A stretch of 64,000 nt of DNA. Source: a plasmid. How positions within the stretch are numbered: the first letter of the stretch is position 1; each line of letters opens with the position of its first letter. The stretch lies in sequence record NZ_CP143948.1. One strand, given 5' to 3'. The notes below the pieces were generated by a model. That model made no database searches, was not told the origin of the DNA, and saw nothing but the letters and a program-made list of their open reading frames with translations. A program made the position numbers and the translations under genes. Positions 1,633-33,138 of the stretch are shown here, piece by piece.

Positions 1633-2976
1633 TCATATGAGAGAGGTTATTATTTTATTCGCAAGCTCTTTAAGTTTTTGTGCTTCATTGAGCGATGGGT
1701 CATCAAGCACCTGCTCATAAAGTCTGTCCAGGATATCGCCAAGCTTCGGTCCCGGCTCTACTCCCATTTTAATCAGGTCGCTGCCATTTATTTTCATTTC
1801 CTTTTTTGATACACACTGGTGGTCTGCAAGGATTTTCCTGTATACACGCTCATATTCTGCGATGTATTCAAGCTTTTCTGCGCGCTTATACATGCTCTGT
1901 CCGAGTGTATCGGCTCTTTTCACCTCAAATAACAGCGGAAAAAGCTCTGTTCCTATGCGGCTCATGGCTCGCCTTACATTGCGCTCTGTGATGGCCGGAC
2001 GGTCATCATGCTCTTTTACGAGCTTACAGCAACAGTCTGTAGTCCTGTTATCAAACTTAAGGCGCCTGAGTATCTTTCTTGTCATATCAGCTCCCACAAC
2101 AGGATGCTTCTTGAAATGATTCTGGCCTTCCTCATCTGTCGTAATGCACACAGGCTTTGCCACATCATGAAGCAGCATGGTAAGCCTTAGGATTTTGTCC
2201 GCTCGCACATGCTCCAAGGTATGAAGCGTATGCTCGCCGACACTGTACATATGGTGCTTATTGTGCTGAGGTGTCTGCATCATCACATCAAACTCCGGCA
2301 TGAATACCGCTGTGAGTCCAAGCTCATACAAATCTCTCATCATCTGCGGATGGTCTGATGTCAGAAGCTTCACAAGCTCCACCTGGATTCGCTCTGCGCT
2401 GACCTTTGACATGGCAGGGGCAAGCTCTTTTATGGCTGCTTTAGTCTGTGCCTCTATATCAAAGCCAAGCTGGGCTGCAAATCGCACCGCACGAAACATC
2501 CTGAGTGCATCCTCACTGAACCTGTCGTGTGCACAGCCCACACATCTGATCACATGTGCTTTTAAATCTGCTATGCCGTCAAATTCATCGACAAGTCCTG
2601 CCCTATGATTATACGCCATGGCATTGATTGTGAAGTCGCGCCTCTCCAGATCAAGCTTCAGATTGGAGGTAAAGGTAACCTCCTTTGGATGGCGTGCATC
2701 CTCGTACTCTCCGTCTATCCTGTAGGTGGTGACCTCATAGCCCACATGCTCCAGCATGACCGTGACTGTGCCATGCTGGATACCTGTGTCTATCGTATGG
2801 TCAAATATCGCTTTGACCTGCGCAGGCTTTGCAGATGTGGTGATATCCCAGTCCTGCGGTGTCCTGCCAAGGAGACTGTCACGCACGCATCCACCTACCG
2901 CATATGCCTCAAAGCCATGCTCGTAGAGCGTGTCTATTATGAAGTTGACATTCTGCGGTAAATCTATGCGCATCAT
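1633..2976 (-). CDS. cca: CCA tRNA nucleotidyltransferase: polymerase-beta-like head plus an HD domain.
   Basis: N-terminal GGCVRD....DWD nucleotidyltransferase motif, followed by the HD-domain motifs HDVAKP and H..H. The likely start is the ATGATG at 2976-2971, preceded by an AAGGAGA RBS; the track ORF begins 27 codons upstream of that. Confidence 0.85.
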   Translation of the reverse strand: MMRIDLPQNVNFIIDTLYEHGFEAYAVGGCVRDSLLGRTPQDWDITTSAKPAQVKAIFDHTIDTGIQHGTVTVMLEHVGYEVTTYRIDGEYEDARHPKEVTFTSNLKLDLERRDFTINAMAYNHRAGLVDEFDGIADLKAHVIRCVGCAHDRFSEDALRMFRAVRFAAQLGFDIEAQTKAAIKELAPAMSKVSAERIQVELVKLLTSDHPQMMRDLYELGLTAVFMPEFDVMMQTPQHNKHHMYSVGEHTLHTLEHVRADKILRLTMLLHDVAKPVCITTDEEGQNHFKKHPVVGADMTRKILRRLKFDNRTTDCCCKLVKEHDDRPAITERNVRRAMSRIGTELFPLLFEVKRADTLGQSMYKRAEKLEYIAEYERVYRKILADHQCVSKKEMKINGSDLIKMGVEPGPKLGDILDRLYEQVLDDPSLNEAQKLKELANKIITSLI

Positions 2977-3003
2977 TGAGTTCTCCTTTTTTATTCTAAA
3001 TGA

Positions 3004-3253
3004 CGCTCGCCGGAGGGGCACATTGCCACAGCATACAACTGTGACACATGCTCTCATAACTCCTTAGTCTGGTGAGAGTAAATACCTCCTGCGGCAGAGC
3101 TTATTAGGCGCGAAAAAATCAAACGCGCTTACGCTTGAACGAGTATTTTTTGCGCCAGCTTCAGCCGCAGGTGGCATTAACTCTCACACACGACACGTCG
3201 TAAATCGAGCATGCGCCACAGCCGTATGCTGCGTCAATGCGCCCCTCCGGCGA
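3004..3253 (-). ncRNA. Candidate structured RNA or long hairpin element: a ~250-nt rod-like, nested, imperfect palindrome between proS and cca. Family unknown.
   Basis: Outer stem: 3004-3024 pairs with 3233-3253 (21 bp, 1 mismatch). Second stem: ~3029-3051 pairs with ~3205-3229, with 4 A-versus-G differences. Third stem: 3063-3097 with 3161-3195. Innermost stem: 3105-3116 with 3147-3157. All five arm differences are transitions that give G-U pairs on the minus-strand transcript and A-C mismatches on the plus strand. No RNase P, tmRNA, SRP or T-box consensus was recognised. Confidence 0.4.
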
Positions 3254-3330
3254 GCTGTTTATCATAATAATATACAAAAGTAATGATTAATTCGCGAAAT
3301 AAATTTTCGTAGACGGATGATTACAAACGC

Positions 3331-3349
3331 AGGCGTAGCGGTACTACGC
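3331..3349 (-). terminator. Small hairpin (GGCGTAG-N5-CTACGCC) directly after the proS stop codon; possible terminator or attenuator.
   Basis: Perfect 7-bp inverted repeat about 40 nt downstream of the proS stop. The downstream T-run is weak (TGCGTTTGT). Confidence 0.3.
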
Positions 3350-3390
3350 CGAGGCTTGTAACATTCGTATACGGGAATTTAGGCGCGAAT

Positions 3391-4830
3391 TTAGTATGCC
3401 TTGCCCCAGTATACAAGTTTGTGCGCCGGCTTTCCACAGCATACGCATACGTCGGAAATCTGTTCCTGATCACCAAACGGCATACAACGGCTTGTAACTG
3501 TTGTGTCCTCTTTGATTTTGTTCTCGCAGGCCTCGTCTCCACACCACATAGCACGGATAAAGCCAGGCTTTGTCTCTGCGATTGCCTTGAACTCATTGTA
3601 GTCGTGTGCATCGTTTATATGGCTTGCAAGGAATGCCTTTGCCCTCTCGAGCATGTCATTCTGCATTGTCTCAAGTACCTCTGCGAGCTTCTCATTGACC
3701 TCATCGAGTGAGACAACGATTTTCTCTCTTGTGTCTCTACGAACGATAACGCACTGGTTTTTCTCGATATCCTTTGGTCCAATCTCGATACGTGTTGAGA
3801 TTCCCTGAACCTCCTGTGCTGCGAACTTCCAGCCAGGTGTCTTGTCGGTTGCATCGATTTTCACGCGGAAATCCTTTGAGAGCTTGTCCTTGAGGTCGTA
3901 TGCCTTGTCAAGTACGCCATCCTTCTGCTGCTGGATTGGAATAACCATAACCTGTGTTGGTGCAATCTTTGGTGGAAGCACGAGTCCTGAGTCATCTCCA
4001 TGAACCATGATGATAGCTCCGATAAGACGTGTTGAAACGCCCCATGATGTCTCATGACAGTACTGTAATTTATTGTCCTTGTCTGTGTACTGGATGCCGA
4101 AGGCCTTAGGGAAGCCGTCACCAAAGTTGTGTGAGGTTCCTGACTGGAGCGCCTTTCCGTCATGCATGAGTGCCTCTATTGTGTATGTAGCCTCTGCTCC
4201 GGCGAACTTCTCCTTGTCTGTCTTTCTTCCCTTTACCATAGGGATTGCAAGATATTTCTCACAGAAATCCGCATAGATGTTTAACATCTGTACTGTACGT
4301 GCCTCTGCCTCCTCGGCTGTTGCATGAACAGTATGTCCCTCCTGCCATAAGAACTCTGATGAGCGGAGGAATGGACGTGTTGTCTTCTCCCAGCGCACTA
4401 CTGAGCACCACTGGTTATATACCTTTGGAAGGTCTCTGTGTGACTGTACTGTTTTGCTGAAAAGCTCGCAGAAAAGTGTCTCTGATGTAGGTCTTACTGC
4501 AAGTCTCTCCTGAAGTGTCTCAAGTCCGCCCTGTGTGACCCACGCAACCTCAGGTGCAAAGCCCTCTACGTGATCCTTTTCTTTCTGAAGCAGGCTCTCC
4601 GGAATGAACATTGGCATGTATACATTCTCTACACCTGTCTCTTTGAACATTGCATCGAGATTTTTCTGTATATTCTCCCAGATGGCATAACCATTGGGCT
4701 TAAAGATCATACATCCCTTTACAGATGAATAATCCATCAACTCTGCTTTCTTCACAACGTCTGTATACCATTGTGTGAAATCTTCCTCCATGGAAGTGAT
4801 GGCCTCTACTAATTTTTTCTCCTTAGCCAT
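3391..4830 (-). CDS. proS: Prolyl-tRNA synthetase, archaeal/eukaryotic-like class II type (about 480 aa, with no bacterial insertion domain).
   Basis: 479 aa with class II aaRS motifs and the C-terminal zinc-binding YWGKAY-type tail characteristic of the short ProRS form. The AAGGAGA RBS is present. No T-box leader fits into the 94-nt upstream gap. Confidence 0.85.
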
Positions 4831-6070: not shown

Positions 6071-6099
6071 TTAACCATTCCTCTATTTTTTCTTAATAT

Positions 6100-7077
6100 T
6101 TATTCATCTTTCTTATTCAAATCAATTATGTTCATTTTTCTTAAAATCGACTCTTTAATTGCTCCACTTAAATATGCCGGATTTAATTTACGTTTTGCAT
6201 ATGCCAAATAGGTGTCTTTTGTTTGTTCAATCAGAATAGCTGTAAAAAACCTTTCCCAACTGAAATAAAGCTTGCTCTCTACATACTCTGATGGATTACT
6301 CAATATGCTTCTTACTGTATTATTCTTTAAAATATCGGCATCCATAATCATCCATTCAAATGATTCAGGCAAATATAAGGCCACATTTTTTCTGCCATGG
6401 ATAACCTGCAACACCCTGTCAATCTCGGAACCAAATGCCGCCCCATCTGCAATGACAAGTATTTTTTCACCTTTATGTTTGTTCAGATAATGAAAGACAT
6501 TTGATTTTCCATTCATAGATTCACATTTCAAACCATTTTCTATACATACATGTTCAAAAAATTGATATCCTGAATTGCTGTCTTCCGTAATAATAGTCTC
6601 CGGACTCACTTTATCTTCATATGTATCTGTTCCATATATCCGATAGAATTCATGATAACTTTGTTTCAATGTCCCATATCTTCCAGATGTACGAATTCCA
6701 TAGATTTCTTCTACGCTATATGGCAATGCTGGTAAAGCTTCCCTAGTAACAATTACATAATAATTATCTGTTTTTTGAATTTTGTCTGCAAAATCTACTG
6801 TCGTTATGAATTCATTTCCCTCATCAATAAATACAATACAGTCTGATATGCCTGACAACTGCTCTTTCCATAAACTTCCTTCAACCACATGACATTTTTT
6901 ATCACATATCACCTCTACAGGTGTGCCGGTTGGATTATTCACGAAATCACGAATCATATCTACAAGTGTAGTTTTTCCAGTTGCACTGTCTCCCTGGATA
7001 ATCGTCAGATTTCTCCGAAGTTCAAATTCATACTTTAAACGTTTTGTTGATACAATAACTTTATGTTTTCCTTTCAT
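6100..7077 (-). CDS. Compact P-loop/AAA-like ATPase with a C-terminal Toprim-like or DUF-type domain. Second gene of a 2-gene AT-rich islet; candidate defence or abortive-infection component.
   Basis: Walker A is GDSATGKTT at about residue 30 and Walker B is CIVFIDEGNE at about residue 85, which is AAA-like spacing. The C-terminal half carries acidic motifs (IITEDSNSGY, ILVIADGAAFG) reminiscent of Toprim/OLD-like nuclease domains. Local AT-richness is a by-eye judgement. Confidence 0.5.
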   Translation of the reverse strand: MKGKHKVIVSTKRLKYEFELRRNLTIIQGDSATGKTTLVDMIRDFVNNPTGTPVEVICDKKCHVVEGSLWKEQLSGISDCIVFIDEGNEFITTVDFADKIQKTDNYYVIVTREALPALPYSVEEIYGIRTSGRYGTLKQSYHEFYRIYGTDTYEDKVSPETIITEDSNSGYQFFEHVCIENGLKCESMNGKSNVFHYLNKHKGEKILVIADGAAFGSEIDRVLQVIHGRKNVALYLPESFEWMIMDADILKNNTVRSILSNPSEYVESKLYFSWERFFTAILIEQTKDTYLAYAKRKLNPAYLSGAIKESILRKMNIIDLNKKDE

Positions 7078-7092
7078 CGTATCCTCCTGCCA

Positions 7093-7530
7093 TCAAACAA
7101 ATTCACCTGCAATTGATACCAGTTCTTCCATGGTATGTACAATTTCATTCGTGTTAAGGATTCGGATGTCAAACGGTTCAACTTCAAATTTCATCAAATG
7201 ACGTAAGTTTATTGTTCTGTCTTCTGTTTCTGCAATTTTTAATAACCATTTTGCACAATTATCTCCACAGGTCGATGCATTGAAAATTTTATTTTTTTCA
7301 AACTTCACCAAAATCAATGTTTTAACACCACCTGATAACCCCGTAGGCGGTATTTTTCCTAACACTGGGCTGTCGATTACTCCACTGTCCAAAACAATCG
7401 ACTGATCCACATCCTTTATCATTTTCTTCACAAATGGATCTGTAATCCAGTTATCTTCATAATCATATTTAAAATACGCTGCCGTATTATATACTGCTTC
7501 TTTCATATCTCCATAAAATATATTCAGCAT
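7093..7530 (-). CDS. Small hypothetical protein (145 aa) containing an LSGG-type motif. First gene of the ATPase islet; possibly DUF4869-like.
   Basis: It is separated by a 15-nt gap from the downstream ATPase and on the same strand, which suggests an operon. The GKIPPTGLSGGVKTLILV motif resembles an ABC signature motif. Confidence 0.45.
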   Translation of the reverse strand: MLNIFYGDMKEAVYNTAAYFKYDYEDNWITDPFVKKMIKDVDQSIVLDSGVIDSPVLGKIPPTGLSGGVKTLILVKFEKNKIFNASTCGDNCAKWLLKIAETEDRTINLRHLMKFEVEPFDIRILNTNEIVHTMEELVSIAGEFV

Positions 7531-7844
7531 ACAAAATCTACTCCTCCTGTTAGATTAGCCTTGAATGAATTTCACCTCACTACAATACAAATGTATTTTC
7601 CAAAACCTAGGTAAGTGCTTACCATATAAACCTCCACGAAATCCATCAATCAGCTGTACTTAGCTACAGTATAGCGGATTGATGGGCAAATTACAATTAT
7701 TATTACCGGTCTTTATGCAGTTACATGATGCGCAACTGCAAGATTGTAAAGTGGTGTAAAGTGGTACAAACAATTTGAAAGTGCATTTTCATGAAATTTG
7801 TGCTAGAATAACATGTTGTTGTATTATGCTAAGGAGAATTTAGA

Positions 7845-8917: not shown

Positions 8918-8965
8918 GAAAGATTCCATCAATACCATATCCGGAATGATGGAATCTTTATTTTT
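8918..8965. terminator. Bidirectional rho-independent terminator between azlD (+) and the GGDEF gene (-).
   Basis: 12-bp perfect stem: GAAAGATTCCATC pairs with GATGGAATCTTT, loop about 18 nt. It is followed by a T-run on the plus strand and by an A-run (T-run on the minus strand) on the other side. Confidence 0.7.
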
Positions 8966-8968
8966 AAT

Positions 8969-10405
8969 TTACTTTCTCCTGTCTATGTCACTGTCACTGT
9001 AATAGCGTGCCTTGCTTGCATACATTCTCCTGTCTGCTTCCTTCGCAATATCGTGTACAAACTCCCAGTCTTCCTCCAGACTTCTTACACATCCGTATGA
9101 GATGGTCATGGAATCGACGATTTTTCCTCTCCATTCAGCTACACTGCTGTCGAAATGCTTTGTCATAGCATCAAGCTCATCCGGCTTTTGTGTAATTATC
9201 ACAGCAAACTCATCTCCGCCTATTCTGTACACCCTGCCAAACTCACCAAAGCTTGCCATCATGCATGTTGCGGCTGCGCAAATCATCTCATCACCTGCAG
9301 CATGTCCATATGTATCGTTTACATGCTTTAAGCTGTTTAAATCAAGTGATATATATATCCACTCTTTTTTCAAATCAAGCTTATTGATATCTGTCTCATA
9401 GGCATGTCTGTTCAGGCACCCTGTAAGTGCATCAGTATTCGATATATACAGCAGCTTTTCTTTCTCATATTTTTCCTTCATAATCTTCGAAAACATATAC
9501 ATAATACAGCACGATGCGAGTATAAGATATATGCCAACTACAAGCAGTGCTACTACGCTGTTCGTCATATAAAAGGATTTGTCAATGGTGACAGCCACTA
9601 TATATTTGTCACCTCTCCTGATTACACATCTGCAGCCTGAATCATTTACGCTAATCTGCCTTACTGTTGGCTTATCGCTTTCCTTAATATCTGTTGGAAT
9701 GCCTAAATCGTGGAAGTTTTTTCCTATTTTGTCACAATCTGTGGCCCCCTTAACCAGTCCTGTATCTGCATCTGCCACATATATTTCCATGCCCTTGTAC
9801 ACAGGCATGTCAGAAACCACTGTAGATATTTCATTCTGCTTCAATTCATCTAAGAGCCTTTGCGGCTTCAAACCCACCTGTACCATCATTGTACCAGCCT
9901 CATTCCAGGTAATGGCATACATCATTGCCTTTCCCTCTGATGTATTCGGTGTGACATCCTGACACATCGTAAGGCTCTTATCGGTGAGCATTGGTTTAAA
10001 ATATGACATCTGAGTCCCCGAATCAAAGCTGTAGCCAAAGTATTTTGGCACGCTGCCGCTGGTTATACAACCTGTTTCATCAAACAGATGTATCTCATCT
10101 ACCGACATCAGCTTTGCTATCTTTTGCAATTCCTCCACATCATTTTCTACCTGTGGCTTTGCATCTACGATATATGACACTGCCTTTGCCCTGACTATAT
10201 AATCGTCCTTTAACGATTCTATAAGTTCCTCCTCACTCTGGTCATTTTTATTGAGCACAGTGACAACACGATCCAGAAGCACCTTTGATAGCCTATATGC
10301 ATTTGCATCATTTACATATTTCAAAATTCCCGCCTCGAGAATCAATGCTACTACGATTACTGAAACTGAGACCATTGCAAATCTTCGCTTATTTTTCATA
10401 TCCAA
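8969..10405 (-). CDS. Diguanylate cyclase: membrane-anchored, with an N-terminal extracytoplasmic sensor domain and a C-terminal GGDEF domain.
   Basis: 478 aa with an N-terminal TM, a periplasmic Cache/sensor-like region and a second TM. The GGDEF motif is intact (RIGGDEFAVI). An extended -10 (TGGTATAAT) lies 7 nt upstream of the ATG and no RBS is present, so the mRNA may be leaderless. Confidence 0.85.
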   Translation of the reverse strand: MDMKNKRRFAMVSVSVIVVALILEAGILKYVNDANAYRLSKVLLDRVVTVLNKNDQSEEELIESLKDDYIVRAKAVSYIVDAKPQVENDVEELQKIAKLMSVDEIHLFDETGCITSGSVPKYFGYSFDSGTQMSYFKPMLTDKSLTMCQDVTPNTSEGKAMMYAITWNEAGTMMVQVGLKPQRLLDELKQNEISTVVSDMPVYKGMEIYVADADTGLVKGATDCDKIGKNFHDLGIPTDIKESDKPTVRQISVNDSGCRCVIRRGDKYIVAVTIDKSFYMTNSVVALLVVGIYLILASCCIMYMFSKIMKEKYEKEKLLYISNTDALTGCLNRHAYETDINKLDLKKEWIYISLDLNSLKHVNDTYGHAAGDEMICAAATCMMASFGEFGRVYRIGGDEFAVIITQKPDELDAMTKHFDSSVAEWRGKIVDSMTISYGCVRSLEEDWEFVHDIAKEADRRMYASKARYYSDSDIDRRK

Positions 10406-10452
10406 ATTATACCAAATATATGCTGATTACGCTATATTTTTCTATAAAATTA

Positions 10453-10723
10453 CGGACCGCAGGTCACCGCCTGCCGGGCAACGCACATACTCCCCGTAAG
10501 CTACGCTGCGCGGCTAAGATTCTGTACGAAATTATGCTTACAGTCTTTCTATGCTTGACGAAACCGGCTTTTATGCGCCGTCCATGGCGCATAACGCCTT
10601 GCCCAGCCGTCCATGGCTGGGCATTTCTGTGTTTCATGGCATAATTTCTACAGTATCTAAGCCGCTTCGCTATTCGCTTACGGGGAGTATGTGCGTTGCC
10701 CGGCAGGCGGTGACCTGCGGTAC
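10453..10723. repeat. Long rod-like palindromic element, copy 1 of a 2-copy family (271 bp). It has a perfect 46-bp GC-rich terminal inverted repeat, a conserved core, and two apical hairpins with GUCCAU loops.
   Basis: Outer stem: 10456-10501 pairs perfectly with 10676-10721. Shared core with copy 2 (CTACGCTGCGC..CTAAGATWCTGTACGRAATTATGCTT..CTATGCYTGACGAAACCG on the 5' side and TTTCTGTGTTTCATGGCATAATTTCTACAGTATCTAAG..GCTTCGCTATTCGC on the 3' side). Central hairpins are TATGCGCC-GTCCAT-GGCGCATA at 10572-10593 and CCCAGCC-GTCCAT-GGCTGGG at 10602-10621. The element starts 26 nt after the hemerythrin stop and ends about 50 nt before the GGDEF gene start. Confidence 0.75.
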
Positions 10724-10749
10724 TTACTCTTTGCTAAAACTCAGGTACT

Positions 10750-11151
10750 TTATTGTGGCTTCGGTATCTGGCAGTCAACATACAGGATATGGTTTATCAG
10801 CCAGTCTGTGAGGTATTTAAGGATTCCCATAATCTGCTCATCCTGATCTATCTCCTCATCACTGTGATGCTCAATGAACTCATCCAGCTTTTGTACAAAT
10901 TCCATATGCTGAACCTTCTGTGTAAACATCTTCTTGTAATGGATTGATTCCATGTACTGCTCCTCGTCAGCAAAGTGCTTTACCGTGTAGTCGCGCAGCT
11001 TCTCCAAGATGATATCCATCTTATCATATTTATCCGGTGTAAACTCATCATGCAGCAGTTCATATGCCTCATCTGCATATTTAAATAACTGCTTGTGCTC
11101 TTCATCAATCATATCTATTCCGATATAATATTCTGGTTTCATTTCATACAT
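10750..11151 (-). CDS. Hemerythrin-like metal-binding protein (bacteriohemerythrin, HHE cation-binding domain).
   Basis: 133 aa. The motifs IDEEHKQLF, H..E..H and HFADEE are typical of hemerythrin. Confidence 0.75.
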   Translation of the reverse strand: MYEMKPEYYIGIDMIDEEHKQLFKYADEAYELLHDEFTPDKYDKMDIILEKLRDYTVKHFADEEQYMESIHYKKMFTQKVQHMEFVQKLDEFIEHHSDEEIDQDEQIMGILKYLTDWLINHILYVDCQIPKPQ

Positions 11152-11346
11152 AATTTCATCCTTCTTTCTTATGTAGTAATATATAAACTTTATGTTTTAT
11201 CATTAGCAACACTTTAACATTTCAACCAAAATGACTTATGATGTATAACGTAAACAGGTTGCTGTGCGACTATTTCAAGCGCCAGAACCATAAAATATGG
11301 TACTGCCGGTCACATCGCAGTGTGGCTGGTGATAACCGGACAGTCA

Positions 11347-12027
11347 TTAATTTATGGATTTTATATGCTTCCGGTTGTAGATCAGATGCAGATACATCGC
11401 ATCGTGGGCACGGACGGCATCGTGGGCTGCAATTGCATCTGCAATTTCACGATGAGTTTCGATGGTTTCATCCCGCAAGGTGAATTCTTTAGACTCACTG
11501 ATCAGAGGAATTGAACTGTTGATGATAGGAACCAGCTTTGGAACAACTATATTTTTGCTGCTTAAGGCAATAGCAGTATGAAATGCTCTATCCTTTTCAG
11601 TGTGATTTTTATTTGCAAGAAGGAGCTTTTCGGTATTTTCACATGCAGTAAGTATGTTTTTGATATCTGTCTCATCTGCACGGATAGCGGCCATGGCAGC
11701 TATGGATGGTTCGATTAGAAATCTGATTTCCATCAGATCTTTAATCATCTTTTGTTTATCTTCAACAAAGGTCAGGCCGAATGGATCATCAATCATCCCG
11801 GGAGTGGCGGAAACATATGAACCGGAGCCTTGGCGTATGGTGATTACATTACGTGATGCGAGTGCTCGCATAGCTTCACGCAGAGAGCTTCTTCCAACAT
11901 TCAGCCGTTCACACATTACGGTTTCGTTCGGAAGCTTGTCACCCGGCTGCAGATTTTCATCCAGTATGTATTTGATAATTCTCTCTGCAATCCTTTGGGA
12001 AAGAGTTTTTTCTTTGGAATTTTGCAT
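11347..12027 (-). CDS. GntR-family transcriptional regulator (FadR/FCD subfamily).
   Basis: N-terminal winged HTH (LPNETVMCERLNVGRSSLREAMRAL) plus a C-terminal FCD-like helical domain. Confidence 0.8.
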   Translation of the reverse strand: MQNSKEKTLSQRIAERIIKYILDENLQPGDKLPNETVMCERLNVGRSSLREAMRALASRNVITIRQGSGSYVSATPGMIDDPFGLTFVEDKQKMIKDLMEIRFLIEPSIAAMAAIRADETDIKNILTACENTEKLLLANKNHTEKDRAFHTAIALSSKNIVVPKLVPIINSSIPLISESKEFTLRDETIETHREIADAIAAHDAVRAHDAMYLHLIYNRKHIKSIN

Positions 12028-12141
12028 GTGATTTGCCTCCTGTTGCCCAATGCCTTGATGTTTAGTTTTTCTGTTCGTTTAAATATTCTTTCAAATATTT
12101 CATTGGCATTCTTTTTGTCTGTAACTCCCGGAAAATATTCC

Positions 12142-13818
12142 TTATATCCCATAGTTGTTTAAAAACACGCCTTTTTCGCATGGTCTGCCATACAGATATC
12201 CCTGCATATAATCTACATAGATTTCTTTCATTGCGCAAGCCCACTCTTCCTTCTCAATTCCCTCAATGCAGATTTTTATATTTATACTGTGAACCATCTC
12301 TATAATCTTTCTGAACAGCTCATAGTCCTTCTCACTGCTCATCGCCCTTGCCGTAAAATCCTTATCTATCTTTACATAGTCCGGGTTCATCTCACTGATA
12401 TAGCGAAGATTTGAATAGCCTGTTCCAAAATCATCTATTATGAACTGGATATTATTCTCATCAAGCTTTTTCCTGAAGCTGCAAAAACATGGCGTCATAT
12501 CCATGAATCCACTCTCTGTCATTTCGATACAGATGGATTCAGGTCTCAGATTGTTTGCCCGGATAGCAGTAAGGATTTTATTTGCCATACTTCCACGCAT
12601 AATCTGTATATATGATACATTGATATTTACCCTGAAATCCGCAATATACTGCTGCATTTCACGGCACATTTTTGCTGCTTCGTTCAATACAAACTCTCCA
12701 ACCGGAATGATGAGCCTGCTCTTCTCCAGTAAAGGAATAAACTCAACCGGGGAAATCATTTCATCGCCCTCATCCGAATGCATGAAAAACCGTAAAAGTG
12801 CCTCTGCACCGATTATTCGATTAGCACTATCTAAGATAGGCTGATAATATACCTCAAAGCCTTCAAAATCATTTACAGTTGCGCTACGAAGCGCACTCAG
12901 GATGGTATTTTTGCGCAATGACACTTTATAATCCTCTTCCTCGAAGAAATAAAGGCTTCCTCCGCCTCTTTTTTTTGCGCATTTTAAAGAAAAATCCGAC
13001 TTTTTCCTGCACTCTATTGCGTCCTCTGCCAGTGTTGATATATCTGTCACTCCGGCAGAAATCGAAAAGATTGATTTATAGTTTTCATCAACTATAAACT
13101 CATCAATTTTTTCACCTATCCTTTTGAACAACTGCACCACATCATCCTGCGATTTGCTAAGCATATCCACAAGCATATACTTATCTGTAACAAGATGATA
13201 TATTCTCTGACCGCTTGAGAGACATTCTGCTATGCATTCGGCCACTCTTTTAAGTATGTAGTTGCCATATATCTGACCCTGAACATTATTGATTATCCCA
13301 AAATCGTCAATTCCAATCTGTATGAAATAACCTGACAGCTTCTCTTTAGGCTGTGAATAGAGATATGATGCCATCTCCTTTTCACCTAACAGCCCACTGA
13401 TATTGTCAGCTCGCTGCCTTGTTCCTGTCTCGTTCATGCAGCCTATAATATATCGTGGTTTCCCCGCCTCGTCATTGATGACCTCCCCACGGCAGTTAAT
13501 CCATACCGGGAGATTTTTGCTGTTCATCAAACGACATAGCACGTTGTACCTTTTTTCTTTTCCATCATATATTTTACGCTTGTGATTTTCGAGCAGCTTA
13601 CGGTCTTTCTCATAAACCAATGTACGAAGATGCTTTGTTGCATCATTCATAAATTTATCAGGAAGCATAAAACGCTCTACCGCTGACTGTGATATCCTCA
13701 GTGTATCATTCTTTAAATCTATAATATACAGATAATCATCCATACAAGGTGCAATTAAGTCTATCAGACTTCCTGCCTCCTGCTCGTCAAGTATTTTATA
13801 TGCATCAAAAGCCCTCAT
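12142..13818 (-). CDS. c-di-GMP phosphodiesterase: PAS-like N-terminus, a degenerate GGDEF domain (GIDDF) and an EAL domain.
   Basis: EAL motifs are present (GAEALLRF, DDFGTGYSNLRY, EGIE). The GGDEF signature is degenerate (QIGIDDFG). It sits in an apparent operon with the upstream MCP gene (22-nt gap). Confidence 0.8.
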   Translation of the reverse strand: MRAFDAYKILDEQEAGSLIDLIAPCMDDYLYIIDLKNDTLRISQSAVERFMLPDKFMNDATKHLRTLVYEKDRKLLENHKRKIYDGKEKRYNVLCRLMNSKNLPVWINCRGEVINDEAGKPRYIIGCMNETGTRQRADNISGLLGEKEMASYLYSQPKEKLSGYFIQIGIDDFGIINNVQGQIYGNYILKRVAECIAECLSSGQRIYHLVTDKYMLVDMLSKSQDDVVQLFKRIGEKIDEFIVDENYKSIFSISAGVTDISTLAEDAIECRKKSDFSLKCAKKRGGGSLYFFEEEDYKVSLRKNTILSALRSATVNDFEGFEVYYQPILDSANRIIGAEALLRFFMHSDEGDEMISPVEFIPLLEKSRLIIPVGEFVLNEAAKMCREMQQYIADFRVNINVSYIQIMRGSMANKILTAIRANNLRPESICIEMTESGFMDMTPCFCSFRKKLDENNIQFIIDDFGTGYSNLRYISEMNPDYVKIDKDFTARAMSSEKDYELFRKIIEMVHSINIKICIEGIEKEEWACAMKEIYVDYMQGYLYGRPCEKGVFLNNYGI

Positions 13819-13839
13819 TAAATTTCACCTTCTATTATA

Positions 13840-15552
13840 TTACTCTTCAATGTCTGAGATTTTGAATTTTGCTATCATTTCACTCAGATTTTCTGATTCA
13901 CTGCTCATCTGCTGGCTCGCAGCCGCACACTCCTGTGATGTTGCTGAATTGGTCTGTACAACATCATTGATCTGCTCAATTCCTTCGTTAATCTGCTTGA
14001 TCTCACTGGTCTGGGTCTCCAGTGTATCAGCTATATTAGTCACCTCTTTTGTAATCACCTTAGAGTTCTCTGCTACTTCTTCAAGCTGTGAAGCTGTCTG
14101 CTCTGCAATATTCATGCCTTTTTCAACAGCCTGCACAGATGTCTCTATAAGCGCAGCTGATTCCTTTGCAGCCTGTGCACTTTGATCGGCAAGCATATTT
14201 ACCTGATTTGCCACAACCGCAAAGCCTTTTCCTGCCTCCCCTGCTCTTGCTGCCTCAATAGAAGCGTTTAATGCAAGCAGGTTGGTCTGTGATGCAATCT
14301 CATTAATGGTTGATATAATCTGGTCAATCTGTTTAGAGGCTTCGTTTATTTCATGCATAGATGTAACCATCTCCTGCATCTTTCCATTGCTTTCCCAAAT
14401 TGCACCTCCAAGCTCATCCACTCTTCCACTGATTTCCTTTGCACTCTTTGAATTCTGCTCCACCTGCTCTGAAACTCCCTCAACCGTCGCTGTCAGTTCC
14501 TCTACAACCGCAGCCTGATTGGTTGCACCGTCTGCAAGGTCATTTGAGCTTGCAGCTACCTGCTCTGCCGCACTTGAAACCTCGCTTGATACATTCTGGA
14601 TTCCCTTTATGGTGACTGCCATACTTTTTTCAAATTCCATAAATGAATGTAAAATACCTACAAAATCGCCTCTCCACTCTACTTCCGGCTGTGCATCAAA
14701 ATGTCCGTCCGCAAAGAGCTTCATCGACCTGTCTATATCATCCACATATGAGCCGAGAATACGGATAGACTTTCTCATGCTGTGTGCCAATCTACCGATT
14801 TCATCCTCTGAACGGTAATCAAGTGTGCTGTGAAGATTTCCTTCTGTCAGCTCCTTTGCCACTTCCTCGATTGCATGTAATGGCTCAAGGATTGTATCAA
14901 GCACGATCTTTCCTGTTCTCTTTGTCAACTGCCATGCACATATCAGACAGATAATGATGACCATGAGTCCGACTGCAGCACATACATATGTCCTTACAAC
15001 TGCCTGATGGCTTCTTTCGTCAGTCAGCTTGTTGATTTCCTTTGCAAGCTCAACTGTTTTATTTAACTTTGGTGTACACTCATTGATAATCTGATCAACA
15101 GCCTCATCCTTCTGTCCGGCTTTAATCTTATCCATGATTGAGTATCCGATATTCGCCCAGTCAGAAAGAGCCTTTGAATATTCATTATACTGATTCTCAG
15201 GAACGATACCTGATTTTTTTATTGTTTTTAACTGCACATCAACATCTTCAAGCTTTTCTTTTGCGCCCTGCTCATAGTCGTCATATGTTGATTTGTCAGG
15301 ATTAAGTGCCATCTCTCTTACATTTCTAGCCGCTGCATTTACATTTATTCTACATGTCTTAACCGCCTGATCGGCAGCATTTACCTTGTTTACATAGTTT
15401 AACATATTGAAAAACAACACACCAATGACCGCAATCGAAAGCAGTCCCGAAATAAGCATCATGGTAATAACCATTCTATAGCCATAGTTAATCCTTTCAC
15501 CCAAATGCATGTTTTCCAATTTCTTTTTCATCGCATCTTTTTTTGAAGACAT
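13840..15552 (-). CDS. Methyl-accepting chemotaxis protein: N-terminal TM-flanked sensor region, HAMP domain and MCP signalling domain.
   Basis: 570 aa. The highly conserved MCP signalling hairpin (NLLALNASIEAARAGEAGKGFAVVANQV) and two TM segments are present. Confidence 0.85.
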   Translation of the reverse strand: MSSKKDAMKKKLENMHLGERINYGYRMVITMMLISGLLSIAVIGVLFFNMLNYVNKVNAADQAVKTCRINVNAAARNVREMALNPDKSTYDDYEQGAKEKLEDVDVQLKTIKKSGIVPENQYNEYSKALSDWANIGYSIMDKIKAGQKDEAVDQIINECTPKLNKTVELAKEINKLTDERSHQAVVRTYVCAAVGLMVIIICLICAWQLTKRTGKIVLDTILEPLHAIEEVAKELTEGNLHSTLDYRSEDEIGRLAHSMRKSIRILGSYVDDIDRSMKLFADGHFDAQPEVEWRGDFVGILHSFMEFEKSMAVTIKGIQNVSSEVSSAAEQVAASSNDLADGATNQAAVVEELTATVEGVSEQVEQNSKSAKEISGRVDELGGAIWESNGKMQEMVTSMHEINEASKQIDQIISTINEIASQTNLLALNASIEAARAGEAGKGFAVVANQVNMLADQSAQAAKESAALIETSVQAVEKGMNIAEQTASQLEEVAENSKVITKEVTNIADTLETQTSEIKQINEGIEQINDVVQTNSATSQECAAASQQMSSESENLSEMIAKFKISDIEE

Positions 15553-15798
15553 AGTTTGTTATTTCCTCCTATCTTATGATACCTTTTGACCCTTTAATCA
15601 TATTATTATTTATACTCAAGTCTGAATTCGTCAGATGAATTTAGTATAGTACTATTTTTCTAAGGGCACAATACTGTATTCTCAATAATCTTTATGTGAA
15701 TCTTTCTATTAAATATGTGGTTTTGCACAAAATGGTATGATTTTTTCGCAATTCCCTCAAAATACGTATGATGATTTTTATCTTGTTTTATGTAATGA

Positions 15799-16063
15799 TG
15801 CAAGTCCCGGCTGCCCGACCGGCCACACAGCTTCCCCGCGTGCTACGCTGCGCTACTAAGATACTGTACGGAATTATGCTTGAAGGGCTTCTATGCCTGA
15901 CGAAACCGTCGAAACGCGCCGTCCGTGGCGCGGTTCTCCTCGCCCCTGCGTCCATGCAGGAGCGTTTCTGTGTTTCATGGCATAATTTCTACAGTATCTA
16001 AGAAGCTTCGCTATTCGCACGCGGGGGAAGCTGTGTGTGCCGGTCGGGCAGCCGGGGCTTGCA
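15799..16063. repeat. Long rod-like palindromic element, copy 2 (265 bp). Same conserved core as copy 1, but with a different and still complementary ~45-bp terminal stem, and hairpins with GUCCGU and GUCCAU loops.
   Basis: Outer stem: 15799-15843 pairs with 16018-16063, with 2 one-nt bulges and 1 T-G position. The core is near-identical to copy 1. Central hairpins are CGCGCC-GTCCGT-GGCGCG at 15915-15932 and CTCCTGC-GTCCAT-GCAGGAG at 15945-15964. The element starts about 20 nt after the TauE stop and lies about 245 nt upstream of the MCP start. Confidence 0.75.
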
Positions 16064-16082
16064 GTTATATATTCAAGAAAAA

Positions 16083-32866: not shown

Positions 32867-33138
32867 ATTGTTACCTCTTATATCTGCAGCAGCTCTTCCG
32901 GCTTATCAATACATTTTAACTATACTACAATGCCGTTGTTTTTTACAACAATACGCATAGTTCCCAGAAAAATAACTTATGATTATTATACTTTATCCAT
33001 CTTGATTTCACAATCTTTTGTTCACGACAAAAAAGTAGTCGTTTCACTTCCACATTTTTTGACGTTATAACCCATTATAACCCATTGATGTTTCACTCAA
33101 AATGGGTTATAATAGATTGTAAGAAACGGGGTGATATT

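Follow-up and report, generated by a model that had tools for sequence, protein, structure and literature searches.

Introduction

What is the long imperfect palindrome that separates proS from cca in the DNA analysed here, a 64,000-nucleotide stretch of sequence record NZ_CP143948.1 (hereafter the window): a structured RNA, a DNA site, or a decaying repeat? Homologues of Cca place the window in Agathobacter/Lachnobacterium, in the family Lachnospiraceae. The proS-cca synteny is widespread in this family, and the spacer between the two genes is usually 2-20 nt long.

Results

A rod-like hairpin in the proS-cca spacer

The imperfect nested palindrome reported upstream of cca in the initial annotation was borne out and comprises 251 nt (Table 1). 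An inverted-repeat search delimited outer arms of 49 nt each (86% complementarity) and inner arms of 27 nt each (85% complementarity). Folding of the minus-strand RNA, a check proposed with the annotation, gave a rod-like structure with an MFE of -170.1 kcal/mol (z = -16.7 versus shuffled sequence). The fold was thus stronger on this strand, which is the gene strand, than on the plus strand (-138.6 kcal/mol, z = -13.5 versus shuffled sequence). The minus-strand fold contains 102 pairs, nine of which are wobbles. In eight of them, all G·U pairs, the 5' arm contributes the G; the long-range rod holds seven of these, and the apical hairpin holds the remaining one together with the ninth wobble, a U·G pair. 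The differences between the arms had all been described as A/G transitions, which is incorrect since the outer stem harbors an A·G mismatch (palindrome positions 22/230). The inner rod is interrupted by U·U, A·A, and U·U mismatches, a bulged C, and an internal loop of about 19 x 18 nt.

At the apex, the minus strand reads A6, an 8-bp hairpin (3119-3138), and U6 (3113-3118), an arrangement that, judged from sequence, resembles an intrinsic terminator. The apical stem is weak, with G-C in three of its eight pairs and two wobbles, and is embedded in a larger helix. Termination at the palindrome cannot be efficient because the downstream cca gene has no predicted promoter of its own.

A small protein was considered as the product of this region and rejected: 1-nt deletions disrupt the reading frame of the 37-aa ORF (3064-3177, minus strand) in three loci (L005, L104, and L092).

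Table 1. Features of the proS-cca region and related elements of the window.
Feature	Position	Strand	Remarks
cca	1633-2976	minus	PolyA_pol head, RNA-binding, HD, and tRNA_NucTran2_2 domains
Linker, 28 nt, then cca ATG (2974-2976)	2974-3004	minus	contains the cca Shine-Dalgarno GGAG (2983-2986)
Palindrome	3005-3255	minus	single long rod-like hairpin predicted in the gene-strand transcript
Outer closing stem, 3' arm	3005-3053	minus	palindrome positions 203-251; holds nearly all U of the G·U pairs
Inner core	3054-3206	minus	palindrome positions 50-202, 153 nt; internal loop, imperfect rod, and apex
Inner arms	3072-3098 / 3161-3187		inverted-repeat search
Direct repeat TTCGCGCCTAA, inner copy	3104-3114	minus	one endpoint of the allele C deletion
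Apical terminator-like hairpin	3113-3138	minus	consensus match
Outer closing stem, 5' arm	3207-3255	minus	palindrome positions 1-49 in the RNA sense; GC-rich
AT-rich spacer between the two rods	3256-3289	minus	34 nt; from sequence
Hairpin 2	3290-3391	minus	102-nt rod directly after the proS stop codon; independent fold
Direct repeat TTCGCGCCTAA, copy beside the proS stop codon	3379-3389	minus	5' end of hairpin 2; other endpoint of the allele C deletion
proS, archaeal-type	3391-4830	minus	5' of cca on the gene strand
TwoAYGGAY RNA 1	rod 10446-10731, core 10503-10672	minus	covariance model
TwoAYGGAY RNA 2	rod 15799-16063, core 15845-16013	minus	covariance model

The palindrome does not fill almost the whole intergenic space, as had been stated: it accounts for 251 of 414 intergenic bases, and a second rod (hairpin 2) and an AT-rich spacer fill most of the remainder. 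Its distance from the cca ribosome-binding site, given as about 28 nt, is 18 nt to the Shine-Dalgarno sequence, 28 nt being the distance to the ATG. The choice of this ATG agrees with the start codons of homologues, and the ribosome-binding site is not occluded by the rod. The segment containing hairpin 2 (3262-3395, 134 nt) had an MFE of -43.5 kcal/mol (z = -6.6), and hairpin 2 alone (102 nt) had an MFE of -41.6 kcal/mol. Hairpin 2 is also present in the sister species represented by L008 and L011, which have no palindrome; on this distribution, it is apparently older than the palindrome.

A consensus scan detected no sigma-70-like promoter between positions 2977 and 3390, AT-rich spacer included. 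Co-transcription of the palindrome with cca, which had been presented as obligatory, is plausible in view of the shared direction of the genes, the lack of a promoter consensus on the cca side of the palindrome, the short spacer usual in the family, and the mere 15 nt that separate the two genes in one allele of this species (allele E, below); that it must occur goes further than this evidence.

The palindrome is confined to one locus in one species complex

BLAST against 83 Lachnospiraceae loci detected the palindrome only in the closest genomes, at orthologous positions. It was complete in L004 and L005 (Cca identity of 99-100%) and reduced to its 3' arm in the isolate genome L006 (Cca identity of 98%). 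A 24-nt motif of the core retrieved 65 human-gut contigs from metagenomes (sample 1), and every contig with enough flanking sequence had the motif at proS-cca. Loci were also fetched by using the exact ProS protein, with no DNA pattern taken from the palindrome (sample 2). A covariance model of the core (R1) retrieved orthologous copies only from the window and 39 loci, self-BLAST of the 64-kb window revealed no second copy, and phage, plasmid, and viral collections contained no match to the palindrome. The proposal of a second family of palindromic repeats was therefore abandoned in favor of a single-locus orphan, on the basis of the 65 contigs, the window, the 39 loci, and the 83-locus BLAST. 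An Rfam 15 covariance scan of positions 2500-3900, with E values up to 10, assigned the region to no family, 6S RNA included; the sole match, to EF0408_EF0409 (11 bits, E = 4.5), was at chance level. The Rfam and BLAST checks thus led to no reclassification and to no further copies in the sequences searched. Since the palindrome is confined to the closest genomes and sister species are devoid of it, we infer that it arose within one species complex.

This narrow distribution bears on a first alternative, which holds that the palindrome is functionless, decaying DNA left behind by a non-autonomous mobile element or by a local inverted duplication. Template switching would keep the palindrome, slippage would erode it, and the G·U pairs would reflect gene-strand C>T bias only. 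We consider this alternative somewhat unlikely. Restriction to one species complex, with sister species lacking the palindrome, is in its favor. Against it, no other copy was present among the 65 metagenomic matches, the window, and the 39 loci searched with the covariance model, and neither a clean empty site nor a target duplication could be defined. Terminal inverted repeats, a hallmark of MITE-like or interspersed palindromic repeats such as Correia, ERIC, RUP, and REPIN, are present only in the trivial sense that the entire palindrome is an inverted repeat. The only candidate target duplication is the 5-nt sequence TCATT flanking the spacer plus the palindrome, and there is no clean empty site because L007, L008, and L011 differ in sequence at the position of the palindrome.

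At the same place upstream of cca, L007 (3796-4000) harbors an unrelated rod of about 165 nt with the outer stem GCCGCTTGCTGCCAC/GTGGCGGCAAGCGGC.

The spacer exists in at least six structural alleles

The proS-cca spacer of this Agathobacter species complex was found in at least six structural alleles (Table 2). The allele C junctions at TTCGCGCCTAA were observed in L006 and in about 20 metagenomic contigs, and a second allele junction type involves the direct repeat ATTTACGCC. The endpoints of the allele F deletion are two ATTTAC repeats. The deletion junctions of alleles B, C, and F are all located at short direct repeats, as in quasipalindromes. Allele C is derived rather than ancestral since hairpin 2, which is missing from this allele, occupies the same position in the outgroups L008 and L011. 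We rejected the possibility that the 139-nt allele is an assembly artefact: an isolate genome (L006) has the allele, two types of junction occur, and a de Bruijn assembly would not be misjoined by a repeat of only 11 nt.

Table 2. Structural alleles of the proS-cca spacer.
Allele	Spacer length	Content	Occurrence
A	about 414 nt	hairpin 2 and full palindrome	20 contigs and the window
B	about 344 nt	hairpin 2 lost	21 contigs
C	133-140 nt (139-nt allele)	3' half of the palindrome only	20 contigs
D	300 nt	allele C plus an unrelated 157-nt rod with a 4-6 bp target duplication	L094
E	15 nt	ribosome-binding site only	L151, L156
F	291 nt	core positions 57-178 gone	L155

The allele classes do not form separate groups on flanking-gene trees, and one allele C contig (L126) differs from one allele A contig (L144) at a single base of 1200 flanking bases. 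This distribution points to recurrent deletion, recombination, or both. Since alleles with partial or complete loss are common, the palindrome is dispensable and structurally unstable, and any function that it may have is non-essential. The existence of at least six alleles, complete loss among them, also favors the decaying-DNA alternative.

In the metagenomic contig L094, the 157-nt rod is inserted at the proS stop codon and is flanked by a TACTAA duplication (4-6 bp). Its apex is similar to that of hairpin 2 (GRCGTAG..CGCTACGCCTGCGTTT) and its outer stem is different; the rod looks like a fresh transposition of an element related to hairpin 2. This insertion with target duplication indicates that rods are mobile in this population, and a fresh insertion of an unrelated rod is a further point in favor of decaying DNA of mobile origin.

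Three observations concern the neighborhood of these alleles. L008 (2731-2880) has retained only the 3' arm of the L007-type rod, a situation that parallels the 139-nt allele of the window's species. In the metagenomic contig L108, synteny with the window is lost where the core meets the 3' outer arm (position ~5400, corresponding to window position ~3050), and the sequence beyond that point belongs to an unrelated chromosomal region (DUF975, Tex, and ECF transporter); either the palindrome was the site of a rearrangement or the assembly is chimeric. Finally, Logan contigs with an exact Cca start a few bases upstream of the palindrome (L001 and L002) or within it (L003), which suggests that assemblers break at the palindrome.

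The one-sided G·U pairs are mostly mutational

Pairing was analyzed in 25 distinct full-length palindrome haplotypes, in which 99.2% of the alignment cells remained paired. Counted by site, G-C-type pairs were found in the G·U state at 21 sites and in the A·C state at two (p = 3e-5 against 1:1 odds). The orientation of the wobbles on the gene strand, noted in the window alone, is therefore real and extends to the 25 haplotypes. The argument for an RNA that had been built on it, with 1-in-16 odds of a consistent orientation, turned out to be far weaker. A baseline from these strains, taken on the gene strand at the four-fold degenerate sites of both flanking genes, gave 0.41 C>T changes and 0.15 G>A changes per site, the former being about 2.7 times as frequent. 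Against this baseline, the 21:2 excess of G·U retained a p value of 0.029, and the ratio of C>T to G>A in the stem thus fits the neutral expectation of the decaying-DNA alternative to within p = 0.03. Of the G·U pairs in the outer stem and inner rod, 15 had the U in the 3' arm and four had it in the 5' arm (p = 0.019).

Two further features of the haplotypes favor the same alternative. C>T hot spots affecting either strand coincide with CCG/CGG and CCGG motifs at palindrome positions 32-34, 218-220, and 243-244 (window positions 3222-3224, 3036-3038, and 3012-3013), and the changes frequently come as neighboring pairs (CC to TT); the CCG/CGG hot spots may be sites of cytosine methylation. In the L128 haplotype, five clustered changes (positions 22, 24, 25, 227, and 236) render the arms perfectly complementary. 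Clustered changes that perfect the arms are a described signature of quasipalindrome template switching (PMC7202029). Since C>T already exceeds G>A at four-fold degenerate sites, and in view of the hot spots and of the template-switch signature, the wobble pattern is mostly mutational and the residual signal is weak. One-sided G-U pairing in a palindrome of the gene strand or leading strand is thus largely a product of C>T bias, and it is no evidence for a functional RNA unless it is set against a local mutational baseline.

Selection for pairing was sought by two other counts. Strict covariation was not detected among the 102 pairs: both sides had changed in two of them, and shuffles reached the observed values in 174-217 of 500 trials, in a test whose power is low at a sequence divergence of only about 2%. 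RNA-level selection need not be invoked for the few compensatory changes, since template switching in DNA could yield both pairs. A first selection count (17 compatible transitions to one disruptive transition versus an expected 2:1, p ~0.007) was discarded as overstated because repairs of existing wobbles had been treated as independent compatible events. Pair-breaking transversions do segregate, pair 11/241 being unpaired in nine of the 25 haplotypes.

The core is conserved and the outer stem is not

Nucleotide diversity was compared in 32 sequences of alleles A and B (Table 3). Diversity in the core was about 10-fold below that of synonymous sites, a constraint similar to that of first and second codon positions of protein-coding sequence, and the outer stem was roughly neutral. 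The AT-rich spacer likewise varied at a neutral level, which speaks against a promoter there. Nearly all columns of the core, mismatches and internal loop included, were invariant among the 25 haplotypes. The same trend for core and stem was observed in a small set retrieved via Cca or ProS, that is, not by a DNA pattern. The half-core that survives in allele C was almost unchanged in the motif-selected sample; changes were present in ProS-retrieved alleles.

Table 3. Nucleotide diversity (pi) in 32 sequences of alleles A and B; the core value omits the 24-nt search motif.
Region	pi	Polymorphic sites
Third codon positions	0.048-0.054	
First and second codon positions	0.001-0.009	
Spacer (~3256-3287)	0.065	7 of 32
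Outer 3' arm	0.068	11 of 49
Outer 5' arm	0.029	5 of 49
28-nt linker	0.10	
Hairpin 2	0.011	2 of 91
Inner core outside the search motif	0.005	4 of 129

The conserved 153-nt core is the one feature of the palindrome suggesting a function. A neutral palindrome in decay fits everything except this core: a diversity about 10-fold below that of synonymous sites and of the palindrome's own outer stem, in the same haplotypes, is not predicted by that alternative.

The conservation raises two other possibilities. According to the first, the core functions by itself as an accessory small RNA, with the 49-bp outer stem serving for its processing: RNase III would free the core from the proS-cca transcript, as in the case of rRNA precursor stems. 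A sequence-constrained core enclosed in a closing stem that varies freely so long as it is paired, and the invariance of the core's mismatches and internal loop, are consistent with this possibility, as is the fact that, in the TwoAYGGAY RNAs of the window (see below), a conserved core is likewise enclosed by long additional closing stems, whose sequences are unrelated. Several observations oppose it. The core has no Rfam match, no homologue beyond one species complex, and no dedicated promoter by consensus scan; about one third of the motif-retrieved contigs have the 139-nt allele, in which the 5' half of the core is lost; and the ProS-retrieved sample includes a 291-nt allele with most of the core missing and a 15-nt allele that has lost the whole spacer. 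Moreover, the 3' half of the core is largely unchanged where its pairing partner is deleted, albeit with changes in ProS-retrieved alleles. We consider a stand-alone small RNA improbable.

The second possibility is a function at the DNA level, the core being a protein-binding or cruciform site or holding the cca promoter. Persistence of sequence-level conservation in the 3' half-core of alleles devoid of the pairing partner would be accounted for in this way, and a weak candidate promoter (TTTACT-N18-TATGAG, palindrome positions 174-203) can be read from the sequence. The consensus scan gave no match at this place, and the invariant T at the end of the -10 hexamer is missing from the candidate. 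Allele E lacks the whole region and retains the ribosome-binding site, and both the orientation of the wobbles and the difference in folding energy favor a single-stranded form of the gene strand. A DNA-level function is, in our judgment, highly improbable.

Relationship to the TwoAYGGAY rods of the window

A whole-window scan at gathering thresholds assigned the rods at 10.4 kb and 15.8 kb to the Rfam family TwoAYGGAY (RF01731), with scores of 159 and 149 bits. The statement that the palindrome is unrelated to these two elements stands: it shares no sequence or covariance-model similarity with TwoAYGGAY, it did not reach the 43-bit gathering threshold of this family, and no match was obtained in positions 2500-3900 at E values up to 10. 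The AYGGAY hexamer is absent from the minus strand of the palindrome, which forms a single apical loop and not two hairpins with AYGGAY loops. The common architecture that had been pointed out was also confirmed, since the palindrome and the TwoAYGGAY RNAs are rods on the gene strand with a long GC-rich closing stem. The likeness extends to their size and setting, as rods of 250-290 nt between co-directional genes with a conserved core in the closing stem. Unlike the palindrome, the TwoAYGGAY rods have near-perfect closing stems and no clear strand preference in folding energy (-190.0 versus -185.8 kcal/mol and -171.6 versus -175.5 kcal/mol for the two strands).

A broader reading can be drawn from these likenesses, and we hold it to be quite improbable. 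The core would be a new accessory structured RNA of Agathobacter rectalis-like bacteria and would form, together with the TwoAYGGAY rods and hairpin 2, a class of rod elements in Lachnospiraceae. Members of the class would combine terminator-like constrained cores with fast-evolving GC-rich closing stems and would share a mechanism of gain, extension, and loss, for example insertion of a whole rod followed by growth of the palindrome by template switching.

The extra closing stems of the TwoAYGGAY rods are 93-96% complementary over 25-56 nt according to a repeat finder, and folding lengthens the helix. The two cores are clearly related to each other, and the closing stems have no evident sequence similarity. 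Both rods are located in a strain-variable block of 7.15 kb (8922-16077) containing GGDEF, GGDEF-EAL, hemerythrin, GntR, and MCP genes, one of the rods being at its right edge. A second strain-variable block, of 1.7 kb (6090-7768), contains a weak AAA_23-like ORF and DUF4869. In L089, L111, and L141, about 75 nt and about 110 nt replace the 7.15-kb and 1.7-kb blocks, and no recombinase gene was seen. Elsewhere in the window, an inverted repeat at 33065-33122 (TTATAACCCATTATAACCCATT / AATGGGTTATAATAGATTGTAA) has 22-nt arms separated by 14 nt, and its left arm also holds a tandem TTATAACCCA motif.

Discussion

The explanation that we favor, tentatively and at somewhat less than an even chance, is that the palindrome is a lineage-specific accessory element, transcribed together with proS and cca, that may reduce cca expression or uncouple it from that of proS. 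The palindrome would be transcribed within the proS-cca message, as suggested by the orientation of the genes, by the scan for promoter consensus sequences, which found none, and by the tight ancestral coupling of the two genes. In this message, it is predicted to fold into a rod of about 100 bp, in which the GC-rich closing stem of 49 bp would need only pairing; the 153-nt core, as its low diversity shows, is constrained in sequence. Expression of cca would be lowered or uncoupled relative to that of proS by either of two routes, both proposed by analogy with the Correia/NEMIS and ERIC elements. The first is partial termination at the A6-hairpin-U6 apex, and in the second, RNase III or another double-strand-specific RNase would cut the long duplex.

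As DNA, the same element would behave as a quasipalindrome, in which gene-strand C>T changes would accumulate and appear as G·U pairs, arm-to-arm template switching would occasionally restore perfect arms, and slippage between short direct repeats would repeatedly truncate the structure. Truncation and re-perfecting of a quasipalindrome would explain why full, half, core-less, and empty alleles are found in nature. The favored explanation does not explain the conservation of the core at the sequence level.

If the hairpin modulates the proS:cca ratio, the spacers of 414, 344, 291, 139, and 15 nt constitute a ready-made natural experiment. The allele series, present in near-identical strains of an abundant gut commensal, would then show an intercistronic RNA structure tuning an operon.

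Three known systems can be compared with the palindrome. With the quasipalindromes of E. coli lacZ reporters, it shares an imperfect inverted repeat, a cluster of changes perfecting the arms (L128), and deletions at short direct repeats. Those quasipalindromes are short and engineered, whereas the proS-cca palindrome is natural, 251 nt long, and endowed with a conserved core that is unexpected of a purely mutational structure. With bidirectional intrinsic terminators, it shares the succession of an A-tract, a hairpin, and a U-tract at the apex, and the apexes of hairpin 2 and of the L094 rod are similar. In contrast to such terminators, the apical stem of the palindrome is weak and buried in a rod of about 100 bp.

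The closest likeness is with the Correia/NEMIS elements of Neisseria and the ERIC/IRU elements of enterobacteria. These are also imperfect palindromes of 100-250 nt in the spacers of co-directional genes, they form a long RNA hairpin within the host mRNA (as predicted here), and their presence varies among strains. Co-transcribed Correia/NEMIS hairpins are proposed targets of RNase III, and ERIC modulates mRNA stability (PMC2229807). Effects of both types of elements on neighboring mRNAs via RNase III or RNase E have been proposed or shown (PMC2229807). Correia/NEMIS and ERIC are multi-copy elements with conserved terminal repeats and target duplications, whereas the proS-cca palindrome is a single-locus orphan, conserved at its center and not at its ends, for which a target duplication cannot be defined. 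The palindrome is thus most like the co-transcribed palindromic intergenic elements, yet it lacks the multiple copies that define them, and we file it as a new orphan member of the long intergenic hairpin elements.
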